In this document: one piece after another, positions 4,707 through 50,518 of the stretch
How positions within the stretch are numbered: the first letter of the stretch is position 1
Layout of the letters: each line of letters opens with the position of its first letter
Sequence record: AP029160.1
DNA: 64,000 nucleotides
Source of the DNA: a plasmid
Strand: one strand, 5' to 3'
The notes under the pieces: generated by a model
What the model saw: the letters and a program-made list of their open reading frames with translations, nothing else
The model's database searches: none
Told to the model about the DNA's origin: nothing
Program-made: the position numbers and the translations under genes

Positions 4707-5597
4707 CTATTTAAGAAGATTCGGTAAAATAATTTTAGGTTCTTGGGAAAGAAATGCATTAGAGAGACTTTGTGCTGATAGGGTAATTATATCCTGAAGC
4801 GGTCGTTCTTCCTTGTTGAAATTAAATTTTTTATACATAATTTCAATTAAACGTTTTTTGATTGATGTGTCTAAATTGAATGGACTCTGTAATTCTTCTG
4901 AAATTAAAAAAACTTCATTGTCAATAATTGGACGAAAAGGTTCCATAACATCATCCGCTAAGCAAAATGCATTGTACTTGCTTTTATGAAATATTCCTAT
5001 GGAAGGATTTAAGCCTGTAGCGCATAATGATCTTGCAACGACGGCCCTTAAAATAGCATACCCATAATTTAAAAATTTATTTTCGTCTTCAGCAGAAATA
5101 TCCCTTTTGAATTCTTTCATAGGATGTATATTTTTCCAATATATTCTGGCAGCCTGTGCTTCTAAATTTCCTTCGTCTCCACTTTTAACTTCTTTGCACA
5201 TTTTTAAAAGTCCAAAATGAGCACCTTTTTTTCTTAATAAAAGAGAGCCTTGAACTTCAATTTTTCGTGCAATAACCTTTTTCCAAAGTTGTTTTTTAAA
5301 TGGAATTGAAGAGAGAATCTGTTTTGCAAAACGCTGTGTTTGCGAAGAATGAGCATCAAGTGGTAAAAGCATTCCTATGGGCATGTGCCTTTCATCGCTA
5401 CAAACAAATATACTTCCATTTTCAGATAATTTTGAAAGTACTGCATGCGTGTATGTTACTGCTGGTGAAGAAACAATGAGAGCAGCAATATCAGAAAAAG
5501 GTAAGGTAACTCTATTTTCTCCTTCAATGACAAGGAGGTCATTGAAGGAGGAAAGACGCACTTTCTGAGTAGAAATATCAATAATTTTTTTTGTCAT
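4707..5597 (-). CDS. cas1: CRISPR-associated integrase Cas1 (type II)
   Basis: 296 aa. The start overlaps the cas9 stop (ATGA). Type II Cas1-like sequence. Confidence 0.9.
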   Translation of the reverse strand: MTKKIIDISTQKVRLSSFNDLLVIEGENRVTLPFSDIAALIVSSPAVTYTHAVLSKLSENGSIFVCSDERHMPIGMLLPLDAHSSQTQRFAKQILSSIPFKKQLWKKVIARKIEVQGSLLLRKKGAHFGLLKMCKEVKSGDEGNLEAQAARIYWKNIHPMKEFKRDISAEDENKFLNYGYAILRAVVARSLCATGLNPSIGIFHKSKYNAFCLADDVMEPFRPIIDNEVFLISEELQSPFNLDTSIKKRLIEIMYKKFNFNKEERPLQDIITLSAQSLSNAFLSQEPKIILPNLLK

Positions 5598-8857: not shown

Positions 8858-8926
8858 TTTTAGTACTCATAATAAAAGGATAAGAAAAAATTGACTTTTC
8901 TAATAAAACAAATTATTTAAATTTGT

Positions 8927-9024
8927 AAAGCATATCAAAGCGGTTATTCCATTGCTTGCTTTAGCAAGGGTTTATGCCCGCAGCCTTAAAAAGCTAGAGG
9001 GGCTTTCGTGGCTCCTCTTTTTTT
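8927..9024 (+). ncRNA. tracrRNA: predicted tracrRNA
   Basis: The first 14 nt of AGCATATCAAAGCGGTTATTCC (8929..) equal the reverse complement of the repeat 3' end, 20/22 overall, and an imperfect match continues further. Then an AAGG...CCTT nexus-like segment, then a terminator hairpin GAGGGGC-tttcgtg-GCTCCTC plus T7. A TTGACT -35 lies at 8891-8896. Confidence 0.75.
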
Positions 9025-9375
9025 GTTCTGTTGCAAAGATTTCAAAGTAACAAAGAACCTTGGAATTGATTTTCAAAACGACTATTCCAGACGCAATTAT
9101 CCAGCGAGGGAGCTAAATTGCTCCCAAATAGGCAAATGACTTTTAAATTTGAATTGCCCTTTTCTGAGCATATGATGGAGTTCAATACCTGTTAAAGTAG
9201 CTTTCGCCAATTTCAATGAGAAGAAACCAAACATAAGCTTCACTTTCTTTTTTATAAATCGATGGTCTTGTTCTACAAGATTATTTAGAGATTTATTTTG
9301 TCTTATTAAGATCTTATCTTCAGATTTAAGATCTTTGTTGATAACATTTAAAACTGCAAATACAAAAAATAAGTG
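9025..9375 (-). mobile_element. 3' remnant of a divergent IS6-family element
   Basis: GTTCTGTTGCAAA inverted repeat at 9025 and a transposase C-terminal coding remnant (...IWEQF.SLAG). It differs from the main IS6 copies in the subterminal region. Confidence 0.65.
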
Positions 9376-9428
9376 AATTTAAATATTTTTTTATCATTAA
9401 TTTTTCATTTCGATTAAGATTCATAAGC

Positions 9429-10331
9429 TTATTTTACCGCACCACTATCAATCAATGAGTGTTCTTTATGAGCATTTAACATTTGTTCATCATCAATTTT
9501 TCTTTCTCTTGATTCTAAATTTTTATAAATATAATCATCTCCATTTGTCTTTTCAGTAAGATGAAAATGTTTTAGTTTTAGCTCTATGTTTTCACGTTTA
9601 AGGGCTTCTTCTTTTTTAATTGACTCTAATTTCTCTAATAAAACAGCTTTATCAATTTCAAGCTTTTGAATGCTAAGAGCATTTAGTTCTGCTTTTTTAA
9701 GCCTTTCTTCAAGTTCCATAATTTTTTTCTTAGCTTCAAATTCCCTCTCTTCATAAGCACTATTCAATTTATTTTTATCCTCAAGTTGCTTCTTTAAGAT
9801 TGCAAGATCGCTTAAAAGCTGATTCATTTTTGCTTCTTGATTTTCAATAATATCTCTTAAAGATAAAATTTCTTTTTCTTTTGCTTCAAGCTCAAATCTT
9901 TGCTTCTCTTTATTTTGCAATACAAGATCAGTAAATTTTGCTTCTAATTCTTGATTTTTGCGTTCAAATTCCTCTTGTAGTTTTCCTTCTAATCCCTTTT
10001 TATATTCTTCAAATTCCCCCCTCTCTCTATTGAGTTCTTGCAATTCTTTTTTAGCTTGTTCCTGCATTTCAAATGCAATCAAGAGTTGCGAGCGATTAAG
10101 CTGGTTCAATCGGTTTGTGAGAATATCCACTTCTGCCAATGCTTTTTTTTGCTCGCTTTCTTCAGGTAGTGTTTGCATTTTAAAGGCTTCAACAGCGGCT
10201 TTAAAATATTGTTGCGGTTTCATTCCAGAGCGGTTGATTTCATTTTGAAAAAATTCACGCTCCTCAATAGAACTACAACGAAATTGGATTCTTGGATCAA
10301 TTTTTGAGGTGTTTACTTCTTCTATTGTCAT
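9429..10331 (-). CDS. coiled-coil protein with MobC-like RHH N-terminus
   Basis: N-terminus RIQFRCSSIEEREFFQNEINRSGMKPQQYFKAAV resembles the MobC ribbon-helix-helix. The remainder is heptad-rich E/K coiled coil. Confidence 0.35.
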   Translation of the reverse strand: MTIEEVNTSKIDPRIQFRCSSIEEREFFQNEINRSGMKPQQYFKAAVEAFKMQTLPEESEQKKALAEVDILTNRLNQLNRSQLLIAFEMQEQAKKELQELNRERGEFEEYKKGLEGKLQEEFERKNQELEAKFTDLVLQNKEKQRFELEAKEKEILSLRDIIENQEAKMNQLLSDLAILKKQLEDKNKLNSAYEEREFEAKKKIMELEERLKKAELNALSIQKLEIDKAVLLEKLESIKKEEALKRENIELKLKHFHLTEKTNGDDYIYKNLESRERKIDDEQMLNAHKEHSLIDSGAVK

Positions 10332-10522
10332 TTAAATTTCCCTTTTCGATTGAATTATTTTTTTAAAGATAAATTCATTATTCCTATACTTATCAATACC
10401 TTCTATTTTAGCGAATTCAGTGTTTTTATTTATTGTGATTTGATTTTTTGGAATTTGGTCTGGAGCATCTCCCATGATTGTAGCTTCAGGAACATTATTT
10501 TTTTTATGTATAAAAGCACTTC

Positions 10523-10987
10523 TTAATTCATAATTTTTAAAAAAAAATCGACTCTAATACAATTATCAGAAATAATTTCATAAAAATGAAAACCACTTTT
10601 TATTTTAACATTATTAATTTTAATATCTTTTTCAAGAGCAACTATATTTTGATTTTTAAAAAAATTTAATTTTTGAATTTTATCACTTTTTTCAGGATTG
10701 AATATAGTATCCTGAACAGCATCAAAATTCATTATAAAGAGCGATTTTTGATCTTTTCCATGCTCTTTATTTTTTGAATATTCTTTAAAAAATGTATTTA
10801 ATCTTTTATCTAGTTTTTGTTTTATATAATATTTTTTTATTGTTGGACAAGCGAGAAATATAAGAGTACCAACGGTTCCTATTGCAGCAACCCATGTTCC
10901 TATTGCGGTTATAAAATACCATGCGGTATCCCAAGTCCATTTTGAATCAATAATATGTTTAAATTGACAAAAAATATAATCAAACAT
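10523..10987 (-). CDS. membrane protein (start trimmed to internal Met to avoid overlap with the integrase)
   Basis: Predicted TM segment WYFITAIGTWVAAIGTVGTLIFLA. Lies downstream of the integrase. Confidence 0.3.
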   Translation of the reverse strand: MFDYIFCQFKHIIDSKWTWDTAWYFITAIGTWVAAIGTVGTLIFLACPTIKKYYIKQKLDKRLNTFFKEYSKNKEHGKDQKSLFIMNFDAVQDTIFNPEKSDKIQKLNFFKNQNIVALEKDIKINNVKIKSGFHFYEIISDNCIRVDFFLKIMN

Positions 10988-24428: not shown

Positions 24429-24504
24429 ATTACAAATAAATTTTTGCAAATAATTAAGAGTTACGAATCAGAGGTGTGTTACTTTTCAATTAGGTTCCAT
24501 TTAG

Positions 24505-25324
24505 GGTTCTGTTGCAAAAAATATATAAGTGAGAGTGGAGTAACTTTTTTTTGGAGTTGTTTGAGGGGAGTGGCGATGGATTTCAAGTGGAAGCATACTG
24601 ATCGTATGATTATCATAATGGCAATCCGTTGGTATGTAGGCTACTCCCTAAGTTATAGGCAAGTAGAAGAACTTTTAGCAGAGCGTGGTATTTTTGTAGA
24701 TCACACGACCATTCATCGTTGGATTGTGGAATACAGTCCAAAATTACTTAAGAAGTTTTATAAGCTTAGAAAGCGTATTTGTGGAAGTTGGCGAATGGAT
24801 GAGACTTACATCAAAGTAAAAGGTGAATGGTGTTATCTCTATAGAGCCGTGGATAAGCATGGTCAAACGATTGATATTTATCTATCAAAACGAAGAGATA
24901 CAACGAATGCCAAACGTTTTTTCCAAAAATGCTTTCGTACTTCTGGAATCCCAGAAAAGGTAAATATTGATAAAAGTGGCTCTAATACGGCAGCATTAAA
25001 GGCTATCAACAAAGATCTTAAATCTGAAGATAAGATCTTAATAAGACAAAATAAATATTTAAATAACCTTGTGGAACAAGACCATCGATTTATAAAAAAG
25101 AAAGTGAAGCCTATGCTTGGTTTCTTCTCATTGAAATCGGCGAGAGCTACTTTAGCAGGTATTGAACTCCATCATATGCTCAGAAAAGGGCAATTCAAAT
25201 TTAAAAGTCATTTGCCTATTTGGGAGCAATTTTGCTCCCTCGCTGGATAATTGCACCTACAGAGGACATTCTTGAAAAGTAACAACCCAATGTTTCGTGG
25301 CTTCTAATTATTTGCAACAGAACC
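24505..25324 (+). mobile_element. IS6-family IS, copy B, 820 bp
   Basis: Same inverted repeats as copy A. Confidence 0.9.
24576..25250 (+). CDS. IS6-family DDE transposase
   Basis: Identical family to 22730..23404. Confidence 0.85.
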   Translation: MDFKWKHTDRMIIIMAIRWYVGYSLSYRQVEELLAERGIFVDHTTIHRWIVEYSPKLLKKFYKLRKRICGSWRMDETYIKVKGEWCYLYRAVDKHGQTIDIYLSKRRDTTNAKRFFQKCFRTSGIPEKVNIDKSGSNTAALKAINKDLKSEDKILIRQNKYLNNLVEQDHRFIKKKVKPMLGFFSLKSARATLAGIELHHMLRKGQFKFKSHLPIWEQFCSLAG

Positions 25325-28281: not shown

Positions 28282-29101
28282 GGTTCTGTTGCAAAAAATA
28301 TATAAGTGAGAGTAGAGTAACTTTTTTTTGGAGTTGTTTGAGGGGAGTGGCGATGGATTTCAAGTGGAAGCATACCGATCGTATGATTATCATAATGGCA
28401 ATCCGTTGGTATGTAAGCTACTCCCTAAGTTACAGGCAAGTAGAAGAACTCCTAGCAGAGCGTGGTATTTTTGTAGATCACACGACAATTCATCGTTGGA
28501 TTGTGGAATACGTTCCAAAATTACTTAAGAAGTTTTATAAGCTTAGAAAGCGTATCTGTGGAAGTTGGCGAATGGATGAGACTTACATCAAAGTAAAAGG
28601 TGAATGGTGTTATCTCTATAGAGCCGTGGATAAGCATGGTCAAACGATTGATATTTACCTTTCAAAACGAAGAGATACAACAAGTGCCAAACGTTTTTTC
28701 CAAAAATGCTTTCGTTCTTCTGGAATCCCAGAAAAGGTAAATATTGATAAAAGTGGCTCTAATACGGCAGCATTAAAGGCTATCAACAAAGATCTTAAAT
28801 CTGAAGATAAAGTTCTAATAAGACAAAATAAATATTTAAATAACCTTGTAGAGCAAGACCATCGATTTATAAAAAAGAAAGTAAAGCCTATGCTTGGTTT
28901 CTTCTCATTGAAATCGGCGAGAGCTACTTTAGCAGGTATTGAACTCCATCATATGCTCAGAAAAGGGCAATTCAAATTTAAAAGTCATTTGCCTATTTGG
29001 GAGCAATTTTGCTCCCTCGCTGGATAATTGCACCTACAGAGGACATTCTTGAAAAGTAACAACCCAATGTTTCGTGGCTTCTAATTATTTGCAACAGAAC
29101 C
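28282..29101 (+). mobile_element. IS6-family IS, copy C, 820 bp
   Basis: Inverted repeats GGTTCTGTTGCAAA. Confidence 0.9.
28353..29027 (+). CDS. IS6-family DDE transposase
   Basis: As above. Confidence 0.85.
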   Translation: MDFKWKHTDRMIIIMAIRWYVSYSLSYRQVEELLAERGIFVDHTTIHRWIVEYVPKLLKKFYKLRKRICGSWRMDETYIKVKGEWCYLYRAVDKHGQTIDIYLSKRRDTTSAKRFFQKCFRSSGIPEKVNIDKSGSNTAALKAINKDLKSEDKVLIRQNKYLNNLVEQDHRFIKKKVKPMLGFFSLKSARATLAGIELHHMLRKGQFKFKSHLPIWEQFCSLAG

Positions 29102-31427: not shown

Positions 31428-32792
31428 CTAAAGGGAGCGAGCTTCTGAAGTCATAGGAATCAGCGGATTAGATTGCTCTAATCTCGTCTTACATATTCCT
31501 CGTCCAGCTTTACTTCGGCTAATTCCTAGCCTAGTTCTCGTCTTAGCTTTCGGCTTTGACAAAAGAAATTGAACACCTCTTTTTGCTATTATTTTTGCTG
31601 CATTGATATCAGCATTGTCATGATTTCCGCATAATAGACATAAGAAATTATCTTGTGTTTTTCTATTATCGGCGTGAGTGTGGCCACAATTGGCACATTC
31701 TTGACTAGAATAATGAGGTGAAACTTTTATAACTAATTTCCCATATTTTTTAGCTTTATATTCTAAAAATTCTATTGTTTTTGCTAATCCTTTAGAGAGT
31801 AATTCTCTATTTAACCCCGCCTTGGCCTTTCTCATATTTGGCAAATAATTTCCATTTTCATCTTGCTTTGGCTTAGGAGATTTTGTCATATTTTTTAGTT
31901 TTAAATCTTCTACTGCAAATATTTTTGCCTCAGAATTTGCAATAGAATGTGAGACTTTATGACAAAAATCATGTCTTATATTACTTATTTTAGAATGAAT
32001 TTTGGCAATTCTATTTTTTGTTTTATTTCTACTTGTAGATCCTTTTTTCTGACGTGCTAATTTTCTTTGGTATTTTTTTAACTTTTTTTGCTTAAGTTTA
32101 ATTTGATTTTTTAACTTATCATCGAAATCATAACAAGATTGATTGCTAGTTTGAAATGGAATTACGATACCTCGATCAATTCCAACGGTTAGAGTATTTA
32201 GTGATGTTTCATCTAAATTGGAATACTCATCCAATAATTCTTGCTCTGATTTTCCTGTATCTTCTACTTCATAACAGAAAGATACATACCATTTTTTATT
32301 TTTCTTACCAATTACAATTTGTTGAGGATTTCCAAATTCTCTATGCGCTTTAAATTTTAAAACACCCAAACTATTTTTCTTAGTACCAATTATAAGATTT
32401 TTTAAAACAACTCCATCATCGCTTATTTCATCTTTAAATTTAAATAATTCACTTGTAAGCAATACAGTATCTTTTATTCCTTTTTTCTTTTTGCGTGGAT
32501 TATTAGCTATTCCTTTAAAGAAACGTTGTTTTGCTGTATACCAAATAGAAGATGCATTACGCAAAACTTGAGAAGGACATTGATTTAACCACTCTCTTTC
32601 ATCATTTTTAAAATGAGAATAGGCTTGATTAATAGATATTTTATCGCCAGTACTTTTAAAAATGTTATAATTTTGATTATCTTCTGACACTTTGCAATTA
32701 TAAATTACTCTAGCACAACCTATCCATTGAGAAAGTATGTGAACTTGCTCAGCGGTTGGATATGCTCTAAATTTTACACCACAATTTGCCAT
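31428..32792 (-). CDS. tnpB: TnpB (RuvC-like RNA-guided nuclease, IS605 OrfB family)
   Basis: N-terminus MANCGVKFRAYPT, C-terminal zinc finger CANCGH...CLLCG. The 3' end overlaps the RE hairpin. Confidence 0.85.
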   Translation of the reverse strand: MANCGVKFRAYPTAEQVHILSQWIGCARVIYNCKVSEDNQNYNIFKSTGDKISINQAYSHFKNDEREWLNQCPSQVLRNASSIWYTAKQRFFKGIANNPRKKKKGIKDTVLLTSELFKFKDEISDDGVVLKNLIIGTKKNSLGVLKFKAHREFGNPQQIVIGKKNKKWYVSFCYEVEDTGKSEQELLDEYSNLDETSLNTLTVGIDRGIVIPFQTSNQSCYDFDDKLKNQIKLKQKKLKKYQRKLARQKKGSTSRNKTKNRIAKIHSKISNIRHDFCHKVSHSIANSEAKIFAVEDLKLKNMTKSPKPKQDENGNYLPNMRKAKAGLNRELLSKGLAKTIEFLEYKAKKYGKLVIKVSPHYSSQECANCGHTHADNRKTQDNFLCLLCGNHDNADINAAKIIAKRGVQFLLSKPKAKTRTRLGISRSKAGRGICKTRLEQSNPLIPMTSEARSL

Positions 32793-32839: not shown

Positions 32840-33316
32840 ATGGATCATAAAAATTACGAGTGGAGAACAGGAAGAAGCCAAATATATAAGCATTATTATC
32901 ATTTAGTATTTGTTACAAAATACAGACGTAATGTTTTCACAAATGAAATACTTGAAAGAGTTAAAGTCATTTTTAAAGAAACATGTGAGCAAATTGATTG
33001 TGAGCTAATTGAATTTAATGGTGAAGATGATCATATACATATTCTTATCAGCATTCCTCCAAAACACTCTGTTGCAGTTGTTGTTAGTAAATTAAAAGGA
33101 AAATCATCATACTTTATTAGAAAAGAATTCTGGGATCATATTAAGAAAAAACTATGGGGAGAGCACTTCTGGAGCCCTAGTTATTGCTCTGTTACTTGTG
33201 GAGGAGCTCCTCTAGACGTCATAAAAAAATACATTGATGACCAAAGAAAGCCATCTTCTGAAAAAGGGGTCGCTCAATCAATTCGTGAAAGAAAAGTACG
33301 TTTGCGAGCGGACTAA
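32840..33316 (+). CDS. tnpA: IS200-type HUH transposase TnpA
   Basis: HxH motif DHIHILISIPP. Catalytic Tyr region WSPSYCSVTCGG. Confidence 0.85.
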   Translation: MDHKNYEWRTGRSQIYKHYYHLVFVTKYRRNVFTNEILERVKVIFKETCEQIDCELIEFNGEDDHIHILISIPPKHSVAVVVSKLKGKSSYFIRKEFWDHIKKKLWGEHFWSPSYCSVTCGGAPLDVIKKYIDDQRKPSSEKGVAQSIRERKVRLRAD

Positions 33317-33430: not shown

Positions 33431-33742
33431 TCAATCCGTAAAAACAATATGTGCTTTTTTCCCATTACAATAAGCAATATGTGCAATGGTTTCTAACGTA
33501 AGATTACCTGAGCCTTTGAGGATTTTTGAGGCCATGGATAAACTCAAATCGTGCTCTTTGGCAAAACTTCTAAACCCAAGATTATTTTCAGCCATCACTT
33601 TTGAAACGAATTTAGAGATATCTTCTTGAAGAAGCCTTAACGTTTCCAATTCTTGCTCTGCTTCTTTGTCTGCTGCGGCCATTTCTTCTTCTGAAAGAAA
33701 CTCTTTAAAGACATCATCCACATTTTTAAGTCGTATAGTCAT
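33431..33742 (-). CDS. HigA-like HTH (XRE) antitoxin
   Basis: Downstream of, and overlapping, the HigB-like gene. The HTH region is LSLSMASKILKGSGNLTLETIAHIA. Confidence 0.55.
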   Translation of the reverse strand: MTIRLKNVDDVFKEFLSEEEMAAADKEAEQELETLRLLQEDISKFVSKVMAENNLGFRSFAKEHDLSLSMASKILKGSGNLTLETIAHIAYCNGKKAHIVFTD

Positions 33743-34130
33743 GAATGCCCTCCTTTAATAATTTATTCCTTCGAGCTTTTGCTCGCTCGATATCTGCTTT
33801 TTGCGTGGATTTATCACCTACAATTAAGATCACCGTTAAGGTGTTATCGATAAATGTGTAATAAATCCGAAACCCACTGCTTAAGTCCCTGAGTTCGTAA
33901 ACCCCTTCCCCTAAAAATTTAGAGGCAGGAGAACCGAGTTCTCTTCCTTGTAGCTGCAACATTCTGATAAGTTTTCTGATTTTTTTAGCATCGTTTTTAT
34001 CTTTCAAGCTTTTTAAAAACTCAGATAAAACATCTTGTTTGCCGTCCTCGCAATATGCTTTCACTTCAATTTCCACAGCAACCACTCCTTGTTGTTCGGC
34101 ATAAGAGAATGATACTTTATAAAGAATCAC
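33726..34130 (-). CDS. HigB-like (Gp49/RelE-ParE superfamily) toxin
   Basis: LGEGVYELRDLSSGFRIYYTF...ILIVGDKSTQKADIERA. Confidence 0.6.
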   Translation of the reverse strand: MILYKVSFSYAEQQGVVAVEIEVKAYCEDGKQDVLSEFLKSLKDKNDAKKIRKLIRMLQLQGRELGSPASKFLGEGVYELRDLSSGFRIYYTFIDNTLTVILIVGDKSTQKADIERAKARRNKLLKEGIHDYTT

Positions 34131-34499: not shown

Positions 34500-34745
34500 T
34501 TGAAAGCAATTTCAAAAGAGCTGATGCTTTTAAAAAAAGCTGGGAATAAATTACGTATTCCTCATAGTAAACCTATAGATACTAGTTTGTTTGAATTGAG
34601 AGAGCGGCGTTTTGGCTACAGAGTTTATTATACCTTCGACAAAGGGAAGATTATCATACTCATTGCTGCTGGGGATAAGAGTTCTCAAAAAAGAGACATC
34701 AAAATAGCTCGTGAACGTCTCGCAAAATTAAAAGGCGGTAAGTAA
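34500..34745 (+). CDS. HigB-like toxin paralog, N-terminally degraded (TTG start; an upstream ATG is out of frame)
   Basis: FELRERRFGYRVYYTF...ILIAAGDKSSQKRDIKIA. Homologous to 33726..34130. RBS+ATG at 34402 hits a stop after 3 codons. Confidence 0.45.
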   Translation: MKAISKELMLLKKAGNKLRIPHSKPIDTSLFELRERRFGYRVYYTFDKGKIIILIAAGDKSSQKRDIKIARERLAKLKGGK

Positions 34746-34747
34746 AC

Positions 34748-35110
34748 ATGAAAGTAAAAAATTTTAATGACTATCTCAAAACAAGACTTAACGAATCTGA
34801 AATTGCTGAAATTGAAGCTCAAGCAGAAAGAGAGTTTCAAGCATTAAAAGCACTACAACAAGGTGTTGCACAGGCTATCAATGCTTACATGAAAAAAGAA
34901 AACATCGGATTTAATGACATGGTTAGAAAACTTGATATTAGTCCTTCAAAACTCTCTAAAATTCAAAAAGGAGAAGCGAATCTGACTCTTGCGAGTATTG
35001 CTCACATTGCAGCATTGCTAAAACAAAAACCTATTGTTAATTTTAAAGATGATGAAAAAGAAAATGATTTTCAAATCTACGAATCAAAATTTCACGGTAA
35101 AACATTTTAG
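34748..35110 (+). CDS. HigA-like HTH antitoxin paralog
   Basis: LSKIQKGEANLTLASIAHIA. Starts 3 bp after the toxin paralog. Confidence 0.55.
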   Translation: MKVKNFNDYLKTRLNESEIAEIEAQAEREFQALKALQQGVAQAINAYMKKENIGFNDMVRKLDISPSKLSKIQKGEANLTLASIAHIAALLKQKPIVNFKDDEKENDFQIYESKFHGKTF

Positions 35111-35943: not shown

Positions 35944-36459
35944 TTATGCTACCAAGTAATCATTATGAATATTGAATTTCTTGATAAATATTAAGCAATG
36001 TGCCATCCAAATAAAATCCTCAAATAGTTTAGGATTTCTTTCATATCGAACATTGACCTTTCGATAATTTTTTAAATGTGCATTTGTTCTTTCCACTATA
36101 TATCGTTTTTTTAACCTTCGTGCTTCTCGACCATCTTGGGTTATGTTTTTACGATTTAGTTTATGATAAGCAACAAGGGTTACTCCCATCTTTTTACACT
36201 TCATATCTAACTTATCTGAGTCATATGCTCGATCACCCAAAATATATTTAGGCATTGTGTGTGAAATAGAATTTTTTAAAGTTTTTATTAGCAATTGAGA
36301 TTCATGAGGATTAGCAGAGTCAATGTGAAGAGAAATCAATAAACCCTCTTTATCTACCATTTGCATGACTTTTGTGCCTTTTCCTACTTTAGTATTTCCA
36401 ATCTTACTGCCACTCATTGCAGCTTTTACAAAAGTTCCATCTACTACAAAAGTATTCAA
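35944..36459 (-). pseudogene. IS5-family (IS427/IS1031 group) transposase, C-terminal half; 5' half lost at the Tn insertion
   Basis: GDRAYDSDKL...YIVERTNAHLKNYRKVNVRYERNPKLFEDFIWMAHCLIFIKK. The frame stays open into the transposon TIR. Confidence 0.65.
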
Positions 36460-36702
36460 ATTTTCATTGAAATTCTTGGTATATATTTCAAAAAGTATCT
36501 GATAGGTATCTGTTACGGCTCACGAACATCGGAGGGTCTGGATCGCAATCAAAGACAAATTGGGCTCAAATTAAATGCGAATACAAAACTCTTCAAACTC
36601 ACTTTAAATGCGAATGAGCTCATTCGCAAAGCACTCGGGATCGCAATCATCAACTTTGACTCACTTTAAATGCGAATGAAAAATTGCTTTAAAAGCAAAT
36701 TA

Positions 36703-37686
36703 TTATCTTGTTGCTCCAATTGTAATACCAAGATGCGTTAGCTCTTCATCAATTTCATGAGCTCTTCCAGCTGGTAATCTTCCTTTTTGATAATCTTTTA
36801 TTTCTGAAACAGATACTCCAATACTTTCTGATAGTCGACCTATTGGATAACCTTGTCGTGTTAATCGTGATTCTAAAGAATCAAAGTTTTTTCCAATTAC
36901 ATCACAAACCGTATTTTCTGAAATAGGTTTTTCAGCAGTTAAATATCCTTCTGATAAAACCCTCCATGTGTAACATTCCATTTCTAAAGGTGTTTTAAGC
37001 TTTGAAATAAGAGCTTTTCTAGCTCCAGCAGTGAAGATATCTGAGATTTTAACATTTGGTTCAAGACAAGAAGAAAGCATCCAATCAAAAAACTTTTCCT
37101 CACATCCATCAATTCCCTTCATAATAACATGCTGGGTTCGCATTCCTATTTCTTGCATAGATGCTCTGTGGAGTTCAAATTTTAATCTAGGATGCCCTAC
37201 AAGGACAATGGCAAGCCTTCCTCCAGCTTTGGAAATAAGTTCCATTAATCTTTTGAGTTCTATAAGTGTCTGCATTGGAAGATCATGTTCTTCGTCTATA
37301 AATATTGCTACGGGCACGTTACGTCTTGTAATCAACTTTTGTATTTGCCTCATTCTGAGCTCAGTACGCTTATGAAGAGTAATAGTGTCTTCATCTGCCA
37401 GATCTGCAACCATGGCATCGATTAAGGTATTTAAATTAACTTTATTTTTATCAATTGAAAGACTAGATACAACAAGGATGTTCCCCTCTTTCTCTAAATC
37501 GATCATTATTCTGTGTAGTGAGCTTGTTTTTCCCACCCCAATCGGACCTGTTAAAGCAATGAGATCTCCTGATGGCATATATTTTTTAAGATCTTCAAAC
37601 ATTGGACCATAGCTTTCATCCACAAAATATCCTGCATTTTTAAGTTCTTTTGTTAAGCCGTAGTATTGCATCATTTCAATTATCAT
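36703..37686 (-). CDS. tniB: TniB-like AAA+ ATPase
   Basis: Walker A GPIGVGKTS, Walker B IFIDEEHDL. Confidence 0.75.
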   Translation of the reverse strand: MIIEMMQYYGLTKELKNAGYFVDESYGPMFEDLKKYMPSGDLIALTGPIGVGKTSSLHRIMIDLEKEGNILVVSSLSIDKNKVNLNTLIDAMVADLADEDTITLHKRTELRMRQIQKLITRRNVPVAIFIDEEHDLPMQTLIELKRLMELISKAGGRLAIVLVGHPRLKFELHRASMQEIGMRTQHVIMKGIDGCEEKFFDWMLSSCLEPNVKISDIFTAGARKALISKLKTPLEMECYTWRVLSEGYLTAEKPISENTVCDVIGKNFDSLESRLTRQGYPIGRLSESIGVSVSEIKDYQKGRLPAGRAHEIDEELTHLGITIGATR

Positions 37687-37696
37687 TTTTACATCC

Positions 37697-38893
37697 TTAT
37701 GAACTTTCTTGCCTAAGATTTAGTTCCTGTTGAATCCATTCGAGGATTTTGTCTTTTTCTAAGGTCTTTGACAAGAAGCTATGAAGATCATTTAATTTTT
37801 CTAGAGATAGTTTTCCTAGTGGTATACCTATAGTGTGAGCAATGAACTTTCTTGCGGCATATTCTGAAGGGAATCGAATTTCGTTAAATGGGTCAGGATC
37901 AACAAAAGGACGCATACGGATGGTTTCTGAAGGTAAACTTTTATTTTCATTGTTTGCAGGAAGATGAATTGTATCCATAGTTTCTCTTGGTATAGATAGT
38001 TCGTTCGCTATTTTTTCTATTTTATCAATTCTTCTTTCAGCTTCTGTTTTTTTATAAGATCTGTATTTATTTAATTGCAACGGGTAGCCTGTTTGCTGGA
38101 AAGGGCCGTATTTTGCTCCTTCAAATTCTATAAAAATGTCCGTTTCTAATAAACCATTCCAAACAATTACTGTTTTTCCCATTAACTCATGATCAACGGA
38201 ATAAATAATACCATCAAGAGAAATAGTACAATCAGAATTCACTGTTCTTTCAACTGGTTCTCTAACAAGAGAAGAAAAGCGCTCCCATGAGCACATTTGT
38301 CGAATTCCTTCTTCAGGGATATTTTTAATCCAATCCTCAATTCGAGAGCATTCTTGGCTACGATGAGGCATCTGTGAATAGCGAATTAAAAACGGGAAAA
38401 GCCATTTATTAGCTTCTTTTTCATCTTTTGGTTTATGGAAATGGTATAAAGTTTCATGAAGCTCTTTGACAGTACGAAATGGTCTTTCAACTTTTCCCTT
38501 TGATCTTGCGGTAATTCTTCTACCATCCGAATTTCTAGGCATATGGCATCTCAATTCGATTCCTAAATTTTGCATCGCTCGTTGAAAAATCGCACTTTTT
38601 GCGATGGGTCCATTATCCATATAAATAACCTTTGGGATGCCTTGAAAAGGAAAATTCTCATTCTCTTTTTTTGACATAGCATTAAATAAAAACATTAATG
38701 CTGCAATAACATCTTCTCCATAAACAACATGATATTCTTGATAAGAAACTCCACTCCTGTCATCAACAACACTGTAAAGCATTAGTATTGCTTTACCATG
38801 CTTAGGATCCACCCATTCTGGCATTATTTCTATATATTTAAGTAGTTTTCGTAGATTAATTAAGGCTTCTTGTGGAATTAGTTTCCGATTCAT
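37697..38893 (-). CDS. tniA: TniA/MuA-like DDE transposase
   Basis: rve core VIYMDNGPI ... GKVERPFRTVK. Confidence 0.8.
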   Translation of the reverse strand: MNRKLIPQEALINLRKLLKYIEIMPEWVDPKHGKAILMLYSVVDDRSGVSYQEYHVVYGEDVIAALMFLFNAMSKKENENFPFQGIPKVIYMDNGPIAKSAIFQRAMQNLGIELRCHMPRNSDGRRITARSKGKVERPFRTVKELHETLYHFHKPKDEKEANKWLFPFLIRYSQMPHRSQECSRIEDWIKNIPEEGIRQMCSWERFSSLVREPVERTVNSDCTISLDGIIYSVDHELMGKTVIVWNGLLETDIFIEFEGAKYGPFQQTGYPLQLNKYRSYKKTEAERRIDKIEKIANELSIPRETMDTIHLPANNENKSLPSETIRMRPFVDPDPFNEIRFPSEYAARKFIAHTIGIPLGKLSLEKLNDLHSFLSKTLEKDKILEWIQQELNLRQESS

Positions 38894-39501
38894 GAAAACC
38901 CCACTAAATTTTTATTTAAAGCTTTAAAAGAAGAATAATTTTTCATTATATCATAATAAGTGCTTCTGGATATCCGAAATTTCTTGCAAAGATCGCTAAC
39001 TGTTCTTTCCCCTTTACAGGACTCAACTATCAAAGAGCTAATATCTAGTTCTCCCAATGCTTTAGGACGCCCCCTTCCTTTCATTTTTCCTTGTGCTTTT
39101 GCAATTGCAACACCTTCTCTTACCCTTTCGCAAATGATATCTCTTTCTAACTGAGCAAATACAGCCATGATTCCTACCATTGCTTGGCTAAAATGATCGT
39201 CTTTTGTGGAATCAATGGCTGGTTCAGAGAGCGATTTATAAGCTATTTTTCTTTGTGAAAGATCTTCTAGAGTCTTCATAATCCCAGAAAGCGTTCTTCC
39301 TAATCTATCAAGCCGATAGACAAAAAGAGTATCTCCTTTTTGTAACTTTGCTAAAAGGGACTTAAGTTGGGGCCTTTCCATGCTTTTTCCCGTAGCGACT
39401 TCTGATATGATTTCTTGGGCCCCAGCTGCTTTTAAGGCTTTAATTTGTAAAGATAAATTTTGATCTGAAGTTGAAATCCGAGCATAACCATAAATTCCCA
39501 T
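38890..39501 (-). CDS. serine recombinase/resolvase (start placed at MGIYGYARIS)
   Basis: GYARISTSDQ catalytic motif. C-terminal HTH. Confidence 0.75.
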   Translation of the reverse strand: MGIYGYARISTSDQNLSLQIKALKAAGAQEIISEVATGKSMERPQLKSLLAKLQKGDTLFVYRLDRLGRTLSGIMKTLEDLSQRKIAYKSLSEPAIDSTKDDHFSQAMVGIMAVFAQLERDIICERVREGVAIAKAQGKMKGRGRPKALGELDISSLIVESCKGERTVSDLCKKFRISRSTYYDIMKNYSSFKALNKNLVGFS

Positions 39502-39687
39502 TTTGGCCTCATTTTTTGGACAGGGTTTTTCGGACATAAAAAATCTAGTAAATTCAATACATGAAAACAAGTACTCTTGGTTGTAGTCAAAGATACCTCA
39601 TATTTTTTGAAATTGTTTCGAATATTTCTAATATTGCATTTATTTCGTTTATGTGGTAGAATATGCTGTGAGTTAAGAAAGGATATT

Positions 39688-40164
39688 ATGAAAATAAGCA
39701 CTCTAACATTGATAGAAGAATATACACCAACAGTTGAGGATACTAAAAAAGCTGAAATTGTAATTAAAGATATTTCTAATTTCAGTGAAAAGAAAAAGAT
39801 TAAAAATCTTGAGCTTGCGTTAAACTTCCAAGGTAATATAAAGAATTTACAACTTCCATTAAGTATTATGCCATTTTTAATGGATATATTAAATGAAGTT
39901 GCTCATGGAAATTCAGTTACTATTGTGCCATTTAATAAGGAATTTACAACGCAAGAAGCAGCGGATATTTTAAACGTATCACGCCCATTTATTATTAAAA
40001 TTCTTGAGTCAGGACAAATACCATTTCATAAAGTTGGTGCACACAGAAGAATCAAAGCAAAAGATATTATGGCATTCAAGAAAAAAATGAATAAAAAAAG
40101 TAAAGATGCACTTGAAAAATTGGCAAAAATTTCTCAAGAAGATAAACTTGGTTATGAAGACTAA
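39688..40164 (+). CDS. HTH (excisionase/MerR-like) DNA-binding protein, putative antitoxin
   Basis: FTTQEAADILNVSRPFIIKILESGQIPFHKVGAHRRI. Start at MKISTL with RBS. Begins 3 bp before the PIN gene. Confidence 0.5.
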   Translation: MKISTLTLIEEYTPTVEDTKKAEIVIKDISNFSEKKKIKNLELALNFQGNIKNLQLPLSIMPFLMDILNEVAHGNSVTIVPFNKEFTTQEAADILNVSRPFIIKILESGQIPFHKVGAHRRIKAKDIMAFKKKMNKKSKDALEKLAKISQEDKLGYED

Positions 40165-40166
40165 AA

Positions 40167-40745
40167 ATGAACAGTAATAATTTTGTTGTTATTTATGACG
40201 CCTGTATTTTATATCCAGCAAATTTAAGAGATTTTTTACTCCATTTGGCTTTAACAAATCAATTTAAAGCTAAATGGAGTGATGATATACATGAAGAATG
40301 GATTAATAATTTACTAAAGAATAGACCTGATTTGAAAATAGAAAGGTTAAATAAGACAAGAGAGCTGATGGAATTGGCTGTGCCTGATGCTAATATTCCA
40401 AAATTAAGGTACCAAGAAATATTAACATCAATTTCTTTACCAGATCCTGACGATAAGCATGTATTAGCAGCAGCAATTGTATGTCAAGCTCAATATATTG
40501 TAACTTTTAATTTGAAAGATTTTCCTAAGAAAATATTAAGTAAATATGAAATTGAAGCAATTCACCCTGATGACTTTATTTGTCATTTAATAAATCTTTC
40601 TCCTGAAAATGTACTTGATTCTATTTCTAATCAATTAAATAGCTTGAAAAACCCTCCAATAAAAATGAATGATTTGATAAAAATCCATAAAAAAAGCGGT
40701 CTTCACAAGAGTATGCAACAAATAGAAACCATGCTTGATATTTAA
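40167..40745 (+). CDS. PIN-domain protein, putative toxin
   Basis: N-terminus VVIYDACILYPANLRDFLL (PIN acidic motif 1), later HPDDF. Confidence 0.6.
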   Translation: MNSNNFVVIYDACILYPANLRDFLLHLALTNQFKAKWSDDIHEEWINNLLKNRPDLKIERLNKTRELMELAVPDANIPKLRYQEILTSISLPDPDDKHVLAAAIVCQAQYIVTFNLKDFPKKILSKYEIEAIHPDDFICHLINLSPENVLDSISNQLNSLKNPPIKMNDLIKIHKKSGLHKSMQQIETMLDI

Positions 40746-41449
40746 ATTTGAAATGATTTACTAAATTTTTTCTTCTGATGATATAAAAATCATTCATCAG
40801 CGATTTTTCATTCGCATTTAATCTGAGCCCATGTTTATGATTGCGATCCCAAGTGCATTGCGAATGAGCCCAATCGCATTTAAAGTGAGTTTGGAGAGTT
40901 TCATATTCGCATTTAATTTGATCCCAATTTGTCTTTGATTGCGATCCAGACCCTCCGATGTTCGTGAGCCGTAACAGTTAACGGTTATTATACAAATATA
41001 TTTTTACCGGATGGGAAAGGAGAGGAAATTAAATTATTAGAAGAGAAATGTAGAAAAGAGGTGAGCAAATATAATAAAAAATATTTATATGCCCAACCAA
41101 TTTTTTATTACTTTGGTTTAATTCCATCTAGTTATTCATTATTTGGAACAAATATCAAGAATACTATTTCATTATCAAATGGATACTTGCCTAAAAAAAT
41201 AGATTATGATTATATGAATAGTTTTATAATAGTACCAAAACGTTCTATTAAATCTCTTAATTAGAATATTTCAAAATCAAATTGGAATAAAGAAAAACTT
41301 AGGCTTTTAAGTTTAATTAACTTAAATAGAGTTTAAAATTAATTTACCACAAAAATCTGAAAAAGATGTATTAGAGGATTTAAAAATAAAGCTCAAAAAT
41401 AAAAAAGAGTTAATAGAAACTGCGAATCTCATAAAGAATAGAAATTATT

Positions 41450-42658
41450 CTATTTTAAGTTCAACGTTACAACAAATTTTGTATTTAAAGAATTTTCATC
41501 ATAAATAATTGTACCTTTATGAGATTCTATAATACCCTTTGCAACACATAATCCAAGCCCTTTTGGAAAATTAAAAGCTTCCTTTGCTGATATAAATGGT
41601 TCCATAATTCTTTTAATAAATTCTTTATCTTCAATTTTTCTACCGCTATCAATAAAATTAATAACTATATGAGTATCTTTTTCTATACATTCTATATCTA
41701 TATATTTATTTCCATCATTAATTTTGCATAAACTTTCATAAGAATTTAAAATTATATTATAAAAAGCGATAGATAAATTAACTAATTTACATTTTATTAA
41801 TAAATTTTCATTAATATTTAATTTAATATGGATATTTTCCCTTTCTATAGACTTTTGAAGAAAAAATAATGATGTTTTAATTACATCTAAAATTTTATTT
41901 TCAGTTATAATTTCATCTTCATCTGAATTAGCAAATTTCCGAAGAGAAGAAACAATTTTATGTATTCTTTTTAAACTTAATTCTAAAGCATTAAAGTCGG
42001 ATTGAAGATTTAGTTGTTTGTAATTTTTTAAATTTTCTTTTATTTTTTTATCTATCAGATATATTTTTCCATTGATTATAGCAAGAGGATTATTTATTTC
42101 GTGAGCAATACCAGATGAAAGATTTAAAATTGAACTAAGTCTTTCTTTTTTTATTAACTCTTTATGAACTTTTTCTAGTTCAATATTTTTTTTGTATATT
42201 TCAAAGTAATTAATAATTTGTTTTGATAAATTTTTTAATATATCAATTTGAAACTTATTAAGTTTTTTTTCTTTCCTATCTATAACGCACAATGTGCCAA
42301 TATTATACCCATTTTTTGATTTTAAGGGCTGTCCTGCATAAAATCTTATATTTGGATTTCCTTGAACTAAAGGATCATCTTTAAATCTACCATCACTTAT
42401 TGCATCTTCTACTATAAATATATCGTCGTGTCCAATTGCGTGTGTACAGAATGAAATATTCCTAGGTGTTTCATCTGCTTCTAAACCTATTTTTGACTTA
42501 AACCACTGTCTGTTCTCGTCTACAAGAGAAATTAAAGCTATCGGTGTTTCACAAACTAAAGAAGCGATTTTAGTTATTTCATCAAGGTCTATATCTTTTG
42601 GTGTATCTAACATTAAATAACTTCTAAGTTCCTCAATCCTTTTAGATTCTAAATCCAT
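41450..42658 (-). CDS. GAF-domain sensor histidine kinase
   Basis: His-box region SGIAHEINNPL. HATPase G-box GLGLCVAKGII. Confidence 0.7.
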   Translation of the reverse strand: MDLESKRIEELRSYLMLDTPKDIDLDEITKIASLVCETPIALISLVDENRQWFKSKIGLEADETPRNISFCTHAIGHDDIFIVEDAISDGRFKDDPLVQGNPNIRFYAGQPLKSKNGYNIGTLCVIDRKEKKLNKFQIDILKNLSKQIINYFEIYKKNIELEKVHKELIKKERLSSILNLSSGIAHEINNPLAIINGKIYLIDKKIKENLKNYKQLNLQSDFNALELSLKRIHKIVSSLRKFANSDEDEIITENKILDVIKTSLFFLQKSIERENIHIKLNINENLLIKCKLVNLSIAFYNIILNSYESLCKINDGNKYIDIECIEKDTHIVINFIDSGRKIEDKEFIKRIMEPFISAKEAFNFPKGLGLCVAKGIIESHKGTIIYDENSLNTKFVVTLNLK

Positions 42659-45000: not shown

Positions 45001-46128
45001 TTAATCTTCATTGACTTCTTGAATATTTGTGGGGAGATTTAACTCCCATTGTTTTCCTTTTTTTATCAGGGTTCCCTGGCATACGATTGGAACTTTTTTG
45101 TCATGAGCTACCACAAATTTAGAATCATCATCATCAGCAGCACGAATAATTATCGAAGAAAGTTTACCGTCAATTTGAGTTTTAACTGTAACTTTACCTT
45201 CAGATTGATTTGCATCTCGTTGTAATTTTACAATCAATCCAAATATTTTTTCGTCTGGACGAGGTTCTTGATTCGTAAAACGTTTGGCAGCTTCTTCAAG
45301 AATACCGCTCCAACGTCCATAAAAATGTTGCCTGTAGATGGGTTTATTTGAGGGCCTAGAGTTGGCCCATGTGATACTTAATTCTACTTTCTCGGATAAT
45401 TTAGTTAAATTAGATAGAGCTTGGCAGATATTCGCATTTACCCCATGTTCTATCCTTGATGAAAATACATCAAAATCCTGACTTGTTTCAGAAATGGTAA
45501 GTGCTTTATGTGTTGCTTCTAGAGCTTCACATAATTTTAATGTTACCTTTCTTTCAAAAGGCTCATCTTCTAAGGAAATCTCATCTCTATTCTTTGAAAA
45601 TGAAGGATTTACGGGTGAAAGGAGTGTAAAAATAAAACTTCCTCTTTCCGTGTGGCCTAGTTTGAGTTTTGAAATATAGTTTGCAACTTGGTCTGGCTTC
45701 TTCCCTAAATAAGCCGCTCGCGGCTCTAAAGCAGAGCATGCAGAGGCGTTTGTAAGCTCGTAAATACTCTTTATGGCATCGACTCCTTGCGTTGCAGGAA
45801 CCCCCTCTGTTGCGCTATTTTCTGTAATGCGCACTCGAATGACATCGACTTCCGATTTTTTTAATGCTGAGATAATCTCAATTTGAGAACGTTTTTCTTG
45901 TTTTTCCAATACACTGACAAGATCTCTTATCCTAAATGCATAATCTCCAAATTCTGTTTTAAGTGGACAGAGGACTTCATATGTTTCATTATCTACTTCT
46001 TTTTCCCAGATATTTGCTTTGCCTGGTATGGATTTAGCTGGTCGCCATCCATTAGAGGAAAGATATGAAGAAATATTGTTAGGAGTGATTTGAGAAAAAG
46101 TTTCAGAATCTTTTATATCAACCTTCAT
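45001..46128 (-). CDS. hypothetical protein (375 aa)
   Basis: ORF track. No recognisable motif. Locally GC-richer by eye. Confidence 0.4.
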   Translation of the reverse strand: MKVDIKDSETFSQITPNNISSYLSSNGWRPAKSIPGKANIWEKEVDNETYEVLCPLKTEFGDYAFRIRDLVSVLEKQEKRSQIEIISALKKSEVDVIRVRITENSATEGVPATQGVDAIKSIYELTNASACSALEPRAAYLGKKPDQVANYISKLKLGHTERGSFIFTLLSPVNPSFSKNRDEISLEDEPFERKVTLKLCEALEATHKALTISETSQDFDVFSSRIEHGVNANICQALSNLTKLSEKVELSITWANSRPSNKPIYRQHFYGRWSGILEEAAKRFTNQEPRPDEKIFGLIVKLQRDANQSEGKVTVKTQIDGKLSSIIIRAADDDDSKFVVAHDKKVPIVCQGTLIKKGKQWELNLPTNIQEVNED

Positions 46129-46220
46129 ATTTTCTCATCCTCATGTAGTTTTTTAAAAAGCAGATCAAGTTGTTCTTTATTAAATATATTTGGTTTTGGA
46201 CCGTCTAATAGGGACACCCC

Positions 46221-46562
46221 ATAGAGATAACACCATTCACCTTTTACTTTGATGTAAGTCTCATCCATTCGCCAACTTCCACAGATACGCTTTCTAAGCT
46301 TATAAAACTTCTTAAGTAATTTTGGACTGTATTCCACACTCCAACGATGAATGGTCGTGTGATCTACAAAAATACCACGCTCTGCTAAAAGTTCTTCTAC
46401 TTGCCTGTAACTTAGGGAGTAGCTTACATACCAACGTATTGCCATTATTATAATCATACGATCAGATCAGAATGCTTCCACTTGAAATCCATCGCCACTC
46501 CCTCAAACAACTCAAAAAGAAAGTTACTATACTCTCACTTCTATATTTTTTGCAACAGAACC
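46221..46562 (-). mobile_element. IS6-family IS, 3'-truncated partial copy (inverted repeat at 46549-46562)
   Basis: IR TTTGCAACAGAACC at 46549-46562. The transposase ORF is intact only to ...GEWCYLY. Confidence 0.8.
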
Positions 46563-49698: not shown

Positions 49699-50518
49699 GG
49701 TTCTGTTGCAAATAATTAGAAGCCACGAAACATTGGGTTGTTACTTTTCAAGAATGTCCTCTGTAGGTGCAATTATCCAGCGAGGGAGCAAAATTGCTCC
49801 CAAATAGGCAAATGACTTTTAAATTTGAATTGCCCTTTTCTGAGCATATGATGGAGTTCAATACCTGCTAAAGTAGCTCTCGCCGATTTCAATGAGAAGA
49901 AACCAAGCATAGGCTTTACTTTCTTTTTTATAAATCGATGGTCTTGCTCTACAAGGTTATTTAAATATTTATTTTGTCTTATTAGAACTTTATCTTCAGA
50001 TTTAAGATCTTTGTTGATAGCCTTTAATGCTGCCGTATTAGAGCCACTTTTATCAATATTTACCTTTTCTGGGATTCCAGAAGAACGAAAGCATTTTTGG
50101 AAAAAACGTTTGGCACTTGTTGTATCTCTTCGTTTTGAAAGGTAAATATCAATCGTTTGACCATGCTTATCCACGGCTCTATAGAGATAACACCATTCAC
50201 CTTTTACTTTGATGTAAGTCTCATCCATTCGCCAACTTCCACAGATACGCTTTCTAAGCTTATAAAACTTCTTAAGTAATTTTGGACTGTATTCCACAAT
50301 CCAACGATGAATGGTCGTGTGATCTACAAAAATACCACGCTCTGCTAAAAGTTCTTCTACTTGCCTATAACTTAGGGAGTAGCCTACATACCAACGGATT
50401 GCCATTATGATAATCATACGATCAGTATGCTTCCACTTGAAATCCATCGCCACTCCCCTCAAACAACTCCAAAAAAAAGTTACTCCACTCTCACTTATAT
50501 ATTTTTTGCAACAGAACC
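49699..50518 (-). mobile_element. IS6-family IS, copy E, 820 bp
   Basis: Inverted repeats. Low-coordinate flank TGCAGAGT, the reverse complement of ACTCTGCA. Confidence 0.9.
49773..50447 (-). CDS. IS6-family DDE transposase
   Basis: As above. Confidence 0.85.
   Translation of the reverse strand: MDFKWKHTDRMIIIMAIRWYVGYSLSYRQVEELLAERGIFVDHTTIHRWIVEYSPKLLKKFYKLRKRICGSWRMDETYIKVKGEWCYLYRAVDKHGQTIDIYLSKRRDTTSAKRFFQKCFRSSGIPEKVNIDKSGSNTAALKAINKDLKSEDKVLIRQNKYLNNLVEQDHRFIKKKVKPMLGFFSLKSARATLAGIELHHMLRKGQFKFKSHLPIWEQFCSLAG

Follow-up and report, generated by a model that had tools for sequence, protein, structure and literature searches.

A probable non-autonomous copy of a Tn552-like transposon family with a VapBC-like gene pair on a plasmid of Pigmentibacter ruber

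A 64,000-nucleotide stretch of plasmid DNA (sequence record AP029160.1; hereafter the window, with a GC content of 30.5%) harbors a mobile element of 4,466 bp at positions 36511..40976, which is most probably (at a rough probability of 0.85) a non-autonomous copy of a Tn552-like, or 'TnsBC plus serine resolvase', family of replicative transposons with a VapBC-like cargo. The five proteins of the element are exact matches to BFD33566-BFD33570 of Pigmentibacter ruber GTC16762 (Silvanigrellaceae, Bdellovibrionota), and one of them, the transposase, lacks 152 residues that its intact siblings have. A first-pass annotation of the window had described an intact Tn5053/Tn402-like transposon at 36510-40977, bounded by perfect 55-bp terminal inverted repeats and inserted into an IS5-family element. 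That a real, repeat-bounded transposon occupies this position was confirmed, but its extent, its intactness and its family had to be revised.

The limits of the element were defined by alignment of its inverted repeats. On realignment, positions 36511-36564 and 40976-40923 proved to be reverse complements without a mismatch, a perfect repeat of 54 nt counted from the TGT. The 55th matching base of the earlier description is a flanking C/G pair (36510/40977), and it was left out of the element because that base belongs to the target in relatives. The inverted repeat extends further, to 182 nt at 91% identity (36507-36688 / 40799-40980), and a 26-nt terminal probe found two sites in the window, both at the element's ends, where none was expected. 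The element has TGT...ACA termini, with its transposition genes on the minus strand; its tip sequence is TGTTACGGCTCACGAACATCGGAGGG, and the tips in the window read TGTTACGG and TGTAGCGG. The ATPase-side terminal inverted repeat (36511..36688, at the left end in the window) and the cargo-side one (40799..40976, at the right end) each harbor five sub-repeats, arranged symmetrically at identical offsets from the tip. Three of them are TTAAATGCGAAT, at 60, 93, and 155, which reads TTAAATGCGATT in one copy, and two are GGATCGCAATCA, at 29 and 127. The sub-repeats are presumed binding sites for the transposase. The TGT start and the subterminal repeats first reported at both ends are thus borne out. 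An independent Logan contig is 100% identical to the element over 36535-40952. The idea that its break at the inverted repeats reveals several copies of the element was rejected, since a perfect 54-nt inverted repeat is by itself sufficient to break a k-mer assembly graph.

Only five open reading frames (ORFs) lie within the element, according to the ORF list and to Pfam and NCBIfam searches. Three of them, on the minus strand, are read from the resolvase through the DDE transposase to the ATPase, outward to the left end. The serine resolvase (38890..39501; 203 amino acids [aa]; BFD33568.1; Pfam Resolvase, 5.5e-36, and HTH_28) has a YARISTSDQ active-site motif and a C-terminal helix-turn-helix (HTH), and its stop codon overlaps the start of the DDE gene in an ATGA. 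The deleted DDE transposase gene (37697..38893; BFD33567.1) encodes 398 aa instead of 550. The AAA+ ATPase (36703..37686; 327 aa; BFD33566.1; Pfam AAA_22, 2.4e-13) has a Walker A motif, GPIGVGKT, and a Walker B motif, FIDEEH; by analogy with TnsC, MuB, and p271, it is presumed to be a regulator that acts on target DNA. The order and direction of these genes are as first described, but they are not of the TniA and TniB types named at the time. No ORF for TnsA or TniQ was found in the element in the ORF list or with Pfam, and PADLOC returned a generic HTH match (mad1) and a weak AAA match, and nothing else. The 98 bp conserved upstream of the resolvase gene (39502..39599), which contain a TGTCCGAAAAA / TGTCCAAAAAA repeat, are a candidate res site and promoter. 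They were singled out because homology to three siblings that carry other cargo (loci L052, L053, and L063) starts exactly there and runs into the resolvase gene, and their function as res is suggested by analogy.

The element had been taken to be intact, an assumption that its transposase gene contradicts. A protein database search retrieved a 550-aa protein (P0001) that is 99% identical to the DDE protein of the window, and the DNA of its locus (L049) and of three others (L057, L058, and L059) is 97-99% identical to the element, each with an extra 456 bp. Nucleotide alignments to L049 and L058 place an in-frame 456-bp deletion in the window gene, with its joint at 38841/38842 and a microhomology of 2 nt. 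The deleted stretch corresponds to nucleotides 52-507 of the sibling gene, i.e., to 152 codons for residues 18-169 of the 550-aa protein, and the deleted peptide ends in ...YSNECWQFDLSQSD. Similarly, the window protein aligns to the first ~17 residues of plasmid relatives of ~50% identity (540-556 aa), and again from residue ~170. Within it, Pfam rve was matched over the last third of the profile alone (positions 66-102), and the NCBIfam IS481 model (NF033577) only over profile positions 139-274.

What was lost can be read from the homologues. W161, D164, D245, and E288 are invariant in an alignment of 54 sequences, and the motifs WQFD, DNGP, and GKVERPF align in hhalign with WQADHT, TDHGS, and GKIERFF of the Tn552 transposase p480. 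The invariance and the register of the motifs together identify D164 as the first residue of the DDE triad. The WQFD motif with this aspartate is gone from the 398-aa protein, which retains the other two residues as D93 and E136. Projected onto an AlphaFold model of the intact sibling, the deletion takes in the first β strand of the catalytic core as well as the helices of two DNA-binding (HTH) domains at the N terminus. Since residues 18-169 comprise both DNA-binding domains and the strand with the first catalytic aspartate, the window copy is, as judged from its sequence, a non-autonomous derivative that cannot move itself and, given its 99% identity to intact siblings, a recent one. The independent Logan assembly contains this deleted allele as well. 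In the 90%-identity cluster of the protein, the sole member named from P. ruber is the 398-aa form, and the other full-length or nearly full-length members, six of 550 aa and one of 516 aa, keep the segment. The remaining genes and both ends look intact in sequence; the ATPase is identical to that of the L049 sibling at 326 of 327 residues (11 synonymous differences and a single non-synonymous one) and the resolvase at 198 of 203. With no visible damage to either end, to the resolvase, or to the ATPase, the copy could at best be mobilized in trans by an intact relative.

The family to which the copy belongs was sought with profile comparisons in hhalign, in which the queries were family profiles built from a DDE alignment (A6) and an ATPase alignment (A7), and the p480 sequence was rejoined from two frameshifted ORFs of pMW2. 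The DDE profile matched p480 with a probability of 95.1% (E 3.2e-8) over 323 columns, with the DDE motifs in register, which denotes a remote relationship; the homology covers the HTH, the catalytic core, and the barrel. In pMW2, the Tn552 genes binL (7180-7773), p480 (ORFs at 5765-7304), and p271 (4957-5772) lie on one strand and run to an end at 4872, with the bla cargo on the other side of binL. The order of cargo, res, resolvase, DDE, and ATPase is thus identical in the two elements, as is the orientation, outward to the end. Both also have inverted repeats of more than 100 nt with TGT...ACA tips (182 nt in the window, ~110 nt in Tn552, whose repeat segments measure 50 + 47 nt), and their target duplications exceed 5 bp, at 7 bp for Tn552 in pMW2 (TAATTGT) and 6 bp among the relatives of the window element. 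The two differ in that their relationship lies beyond the reach of tblastn, with no Staphylococcus among the leading organisms of the 721-902 plasmid records described below. The window family occurs mainly in cyanobacteria, Pseudomonadota, and Bdellovibrionota instead of Staphylococcus, and its ATPase, at 327 aa against the 271 aa of p271, is only weakly similar to the latter. The window copy, moreover, is transposase-defective.

When the DDE and ATPase proteins were searched against the PDB, by sequence and by profile, weak matches to retroviral integrases and generic P-loop proteins were the only result, and the profiles did not reach TnsB or TnsC. Because such searches could not place the two proteins, folds were compared instead. 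In Foldseek, the DDE model matched the TnsB of ShCAST best (1.9e-16), along with IstA (1.7e-14), the TnsB of Tn7, and MuA. The AlphaFold model of the ATPase, with a predicted local distance difference test (pLDDT) score of 83, matched Cdc6/ORC, the TnsC of a type I-B system (3.7e-7), MuB, and the TnsC of Tn7. Transposons made of TnsB and TnsC, with neither TnsA nor TniQ, have been described as 'TnsBC' elements that are thought to transpose replicatively like Mu; two-ended members include some with a serine recombinase and generate 5-bp duplications (Hsieh and Peters, preprint, 10.1101/2024.11.13.623437). The folds of the window family match TnsB and TnsC/MuB, a likeness at the level of the fold only, and the 6-bp duplication of the window family differs from the 5 bp of the two-ended members in that preprint.

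The architecture of the window element recurs widely. In the general layout of the family, a long multi-repeat TGT end is followed by a variable cargo, res, a serine resolvase gene, the gene of a ~550-aa DDE protein, that of a ~325-aa AAA+ ATPase, and a second long end; three plasmid relatives (L001-L003) share this architecture. In a set of 44 genomic loci, inverted repeats of ~120-250 nt accompany the majority of complete DDE genes; the DDE gene is followed by that of the ATPase, and the resolvase gene usually lies upstream. The ATPase gene is conserved in the family and often translationally coupled. The resolvase gene is present in most relatives and absent from some forms of 3.3-3.9 kb, and relatives of 3.7-3.8 kb have room for three genes only. 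The ends of the relatives carry iterated sub-repeats of their own, and their tips read TGTAGCG or TGTAACG. Exact 6-bp target duplications flank seven of the 19 relatives with defined tips (ACTAAG, ACTATC, GGTACT, TATAGT, CATAGT, ACTATC, and ATTATC), far more than expected by chance, and none of the 19 has a 5-bp duplication. The two central positions are TA in most flanks, though not in all, so that the consensus is NNTANN.

A tblastn search of PLSDB found a relative in 721-902 plasmid records, ~390 of which are Salmonella plasmids, including virulence plasmids of the pSLT type. These Salmonella plasmids (H38-H49) carry a trio annotated as a recombinase, an 'IS481 family' DDE protein, and an 'ExeA family' ATPase. 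At the protein level, 3,310 sequences match the window DDE family at E<=1e-10. A scan of genome contigs found no close relative, with best matches ~50-56% identical, and a degenerate 25-nt end motif had no match in a scan of metagenomes. Two loci depart from the common pattern. At L034, a family DDE gene (5681-10918) is split by a nested insertion of ~3.6 kb with perfect 172-nt inverted repeats (6420-6591 / 9837-10008). At L049, the intact sibling has a shortened ATPase-side end (4495-4585) with a single TTAAATGCGAAT repeat and a different tip (TGTAGCAGCTCAC), which reflects either recombination between sub-repeats spaced 95-98 bp apart or collapse in a short-read assembly.

For an intact member, the most likely pathway would be the following. 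The DDE protein, with its TnsB/IstA/MuA-like fold, would bind the sub-repeats in both ends, pair the ends, and nick at the TGT/ACA tips, while its AAA+ partner, with a Cdc6/TnsC/MuB-like fold, would present target DNA. Strand transfer with a 6-bp stagger at NNTANN sites would then give a cointegrate, which the resolvase would resolve at res, just upstream of its own gene.

Several observations weigh against the Tn552-like placement or the account of the window copy that goes with it. The ATPase profile matched p271 weakly (15.8%, E 1.6e-3, 199 columns), and the fold matches of the ATPase were headed by Cdc6/ORC, ahead of any transposon regulator. The DDE model is of moderate quality, with a pLDDT of 74 and a predicted template modeling (pTM) score of 0.48. 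Replicative transposition, the role of the ATPase, and the res site are all inferred by analogy, and no transposition assay for any member of the family was found in the literature. The retained part of the DDE gene differs from that of L049 by 11 synonymous and five non-synonymous changes, which does not demonstrate relaxed selection. Finally, 12 of the 19 relatives with defined tips are also devoid of a target duplication, a proportion to be expected if end-precise rearrangements are common in the family.

The main competing classification is that the element is a long member of the IS481 family that acquired an ATPase, a resolvase, and toxin-antitoxin genes as passengers, rather than a Tn552-like transposon. 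We consider this unlikely, although it accounts for several features of the element. NCBI names the window protein and most of its relatives 'IS481 family transposase', a label that the 398-aa protein already has in its GenBank record. The pSLT gene of the family (rlgA/PSLT044) similarly coincides with a gene called IS481-family tnpA (PMC11047700). The window termini, TGTTACGG and TGTAGCGG, resemble the TGTTGCGG of ISRe46, and the 6-bp duplications of the relatives, with their palindromic core, resemble the NCTAGN of IS481 and ISRe46 (PMC6794481). A catalytic glutamate motif of the GKVER type is common to the window family and to ISRe46/TnRErm46 (PMC6794481), and hhalign relates the DDE profile to ISRe46 at 71%, over the catalytic core only. 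On the other hand, Tn552 p480 is matched more strongly and over the full length, and the score with the NCBIfam IS481 model is 40.3 bits, far below its cut-off of 224. The described IS481 members consist of one ORF of ~330 aa between inverted repeats of ~20 nt, with neither an ATPase nor a resolvase partner, whereas the ~550-aa protein of the window family has additional N-terminal domains and a C-terminal barrel of the Mu type, and the family also has an ATPase gene and multi-repeat ends of 150-250 nt. A Tn552-like assignment therefore remains the preferred one.

A different objection concerns the state of the window copy rather than its kinship. Truncated transposases of other elements can act as inhibitors or regulators, and the 398-aa protein might likewise be a retained trans-acting inhibitor or regulator, with the functions of the resolvase, the ATPase, and the toxin-antitoxin pair as the reason for keeping the locus. 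The deletion does not disturb the reading frame, and the start codon, the ATGA overlap, and the C-terminal two thirds of the protein, a plausible location for an interface with the ATPase, are preserved; all the other genes look intact as well. However, one in three random deletions is in frame, the allele was encountered only in P. ruber-type sequence, its near identity to the siblings (99%) makes it a recent event, and no such short form is conserved among 120 listed homologues. A retained regulator thus appears improbable, and a recently disabled transposase is the reading that we favor.

Least credible of all is the initial proposal of an intact, autonomous Tn5053/Tn402 member with tniA, tniB, and tniR, whose insertion into an IS5 element was accompanied by a deletion. 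An IS5 reading frame is indeed interrupted by the left tip, and TGT termini, several sub-terminal repeats, and genes for a DDE protein, a P-loop ATPase, and a serine resolvase are present, as in Tn5053/Tn402 elements, which belong to the same replicative, cointegrate-resolving class. Nevertheless, TGT termini with repeated sub-terminal motifs are also found in Tn7, Mu, Tn552, and IS481 and are therefore not discriminating. The loss of 152 residues including the first catalytic aspartate conflicts with the notion of an intact transposon, and the family itself also departs from Tn5053/Tn402. The element has no TniQ gene, nor would one fit into the three-gene relatives of 3.7-3.8 kb. The DDE profile matches the TniA of Tn402 at 4.3% in hhalign, and the ATPase has no match to the TniB model PF05621, its profile being related to the TniB of Tn402 at 48.5% over 47 columns around Walker B. 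In R751, tniA, tniB, tniQ, and tniR lie on one strand with the resolvase gene last, the opposite of the arrangement in the window, and the duplications of the relatives are 6 bp long, against 5 bp for Tn5053/Tn402. The comparison with this group is reasonable at the level of the mechanistic class, namely a DDE transposase with an AAA+ regulator and a resolvase acting on multi-repeat TGT ends. A genuine module of TniQ (PF06527) and TniB, the latter with a PF05621 match, occurs at 20243-21653 of L052, a Fluviispira sanaruensis plasmid (AP019369), ~8 kb from the sibling element. Its recognition indicates that true Tn5053-type genes coexist with the present family in Silvanigrellaceae and are clearly distinguishable from it.

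A variable part of the Tn552-like layout is the cargo, which in the window occupies positions 39600..40798. Homology to differently loaded siblings ends at 39599, 98 bp upstream of the resolvase start, and sets in again at the inner border of the right inverted repeat; these boundaries on both sides define 39600-40798 as an exchangeable cargo slot beside the presumed res. In the window, the slot contains two genes on the plus strand, both located between the inverted repeats, as first reported. The upstream gene (39688..40164) encodes a putative antitoxin of the HTH_17/excisionase type (158 aa; Pfam HTH_17, 1.7e-12) and the downstream one (40167..40745) a putative toxin of the PIN_3/VapC50_C type (192 aa; Pfam PIN_3, 1.3e-9; precomputed PF26343). 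The HTH stop codon and the PIN start codon, ATG, are separated by a 2-nt spacer rather than by the 3 bp given earlier. As in VapBC50-type pairs, an HTH_17/excisionase-type gene thus lies 2 nt upstream of a PIN_3 gene with a VapC50_C region; the PIN protein differs from them in reaching 132 bits against a cut-off of 170 for the NCBIfam RSP_2648 PIN model. On these sequence features, the pair is a candidate VapBC-like type II toxin-antitoxin system, and it is plausible that it serves as an addiction module for the transposon.

The same HTH/PIN cargo is common to the window, L049, L057, and L058. The slot of L052 and L053 encodes a VOMI-domain protein together with a hybrid histidine kinase and a response regulator, and that of L063 harbors another gene. 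Just outside the right inverted repeat of the window, a histidine-kinase gene (41450-42658, minus strand) shows ~66% DNA similarity to the cargo kinase of L052 (6455-8500), which could reflect simple paralogy or a trace of cargo exchange.

The junctions of the element with its surroundings are less regular than its ends. On the left, the tip directly abuts what remains of an IS5-family transposase gene, a 3' fragment (35944..36510, minus strand; Pfam DDE_Tnp_1, 1.1e-17; NCBIfam IS5_3), which corresponds to about residues 76-255 of a 255-aa homologue and whose frame is open up to the tip. The earlier conclusion that the left repeat interrupts an IS5 gene is therefore upheld. It had been suggested that the missing 5' part of this gene be sought elsewhere, but the ~75 N-terminal codons were found neither on the right flank nor in the rest of the window. 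The flanks read GGTATC before the TGT and GTTAAC after the ACA, with no target duplication of 5 or 6 bp, in agreement with the absence of a 5-bp duplication noted at first. Both flanks fit NNTANN, yet they differ at two of six positions. Since the flanks differ to this extent while the 54-nt tips are perfect, the two ends most likely lie at different target sites, and a decayed duplication is less likely. The mismatched flanks would most likely result from an end-precise rearrangement by the element or from recombination between two copies. As many relatives also lack a duplication, its absence is not diagnostic of any one event. Besides the IS5 fragment, the flanks consist of non-coding DNA, and an occupied res site, the plasmid target toward which Tn5053/Tn402 elements direct their insertion (res hunting), is not evident in them. 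Short similarities between the flanks of L049 or L052 and those of the window were considered as shared insertion sites and rejected, being too short and too weak. In Okeania sp. KiyG1, two copies (L022 and L025) agree in the right flank but not in the left one, a pattern suggestive of frequent end-precise rearrangements or of recombination among copies.

The neighborhood gives some indication of the order of events. The window contains two Gp49 (RelE-like)/HTH toxin-antitoxin pairs, at 33431-34130 (minus strand) and 34500-35110 (plus strand), the second of which has 75% nucleotide and 70-81% amino-acid identity with positions 5607-6294 of L063, a metagenome contig. This module lies ~0.8 kb beyond the ATPase-side end in L063 and ~1.4 kb beyond it in the window, where the IS5 fragment is in between. 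The presence of the module near the same end makes it syntenic with the transposon in two organisms, and suggests that the neighborhood is older than the IS5 junction. In a possible sequence of events, the element would already have resided in its present neighborhood when an IS5 element inserted nearby. An end-precise event mediated by the still active transposon, such as a deletion or an inversion next to the element, produced by intramolecular replicative transposition, or else recombination with a second copy, would then have joined the tip to the interior of IS5, and the transposase gene would have been deleted later. The region at large is a segment of accessory DNA dense in insertion sequences, with three IS6-family (DDE_Tnp_IS240) transposase genes (24444-25250, 28338-29027, and 49773-50462) and a fragment (46125-46457), as well as IS200/IS605 tnpA (32840-33316) and tnpB (31428-32792) genes. 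Exact look-ups of two flanking proteins returned no match.

A literature search for a named family (rlgA/pSLT, ExeA with IS481, and IS481 with AAA+) found no formal description, and a paper on ISPa40 proved irrelevant to the family. Tentatively, the family might be formally undescribed, and might link tips and a target choice of the IS481 type with ATPase-assisted replicative transposition of the Tn552, TnsB-TnsC, or Mu type. If so, the truncated transposase of the window could also be a natural dominant-negative regulator.

For the window itself, the parts of whose element already had separate annotations in GenBank, these results mainly correct the record: the element is real, but it is no longer an autonomous transposon, and its earlier family assignment was wrong. 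What the evidence defines beyond it is a Tn552-like family that is coherent and very widespread, characterized by a three-gene core, its end structure, a 6-bp NNTANN duplication, and an exchangeable slot beside res. Databases label its parts separately, as 'IS481 family transposase', 'ExeA/AAA ATPase', or 'recombinase', and its members reside on the virulence plasmids of Salmonella and on many cyanobacterial plasmids. Together with its 99%-identical intact siblings of the L058 type, the window copy forms a natural pair of active and defective alleles, which would be useful to study how an IS481-like/TnsB-like transposase acts with an AAA+ partner and without TniQ.

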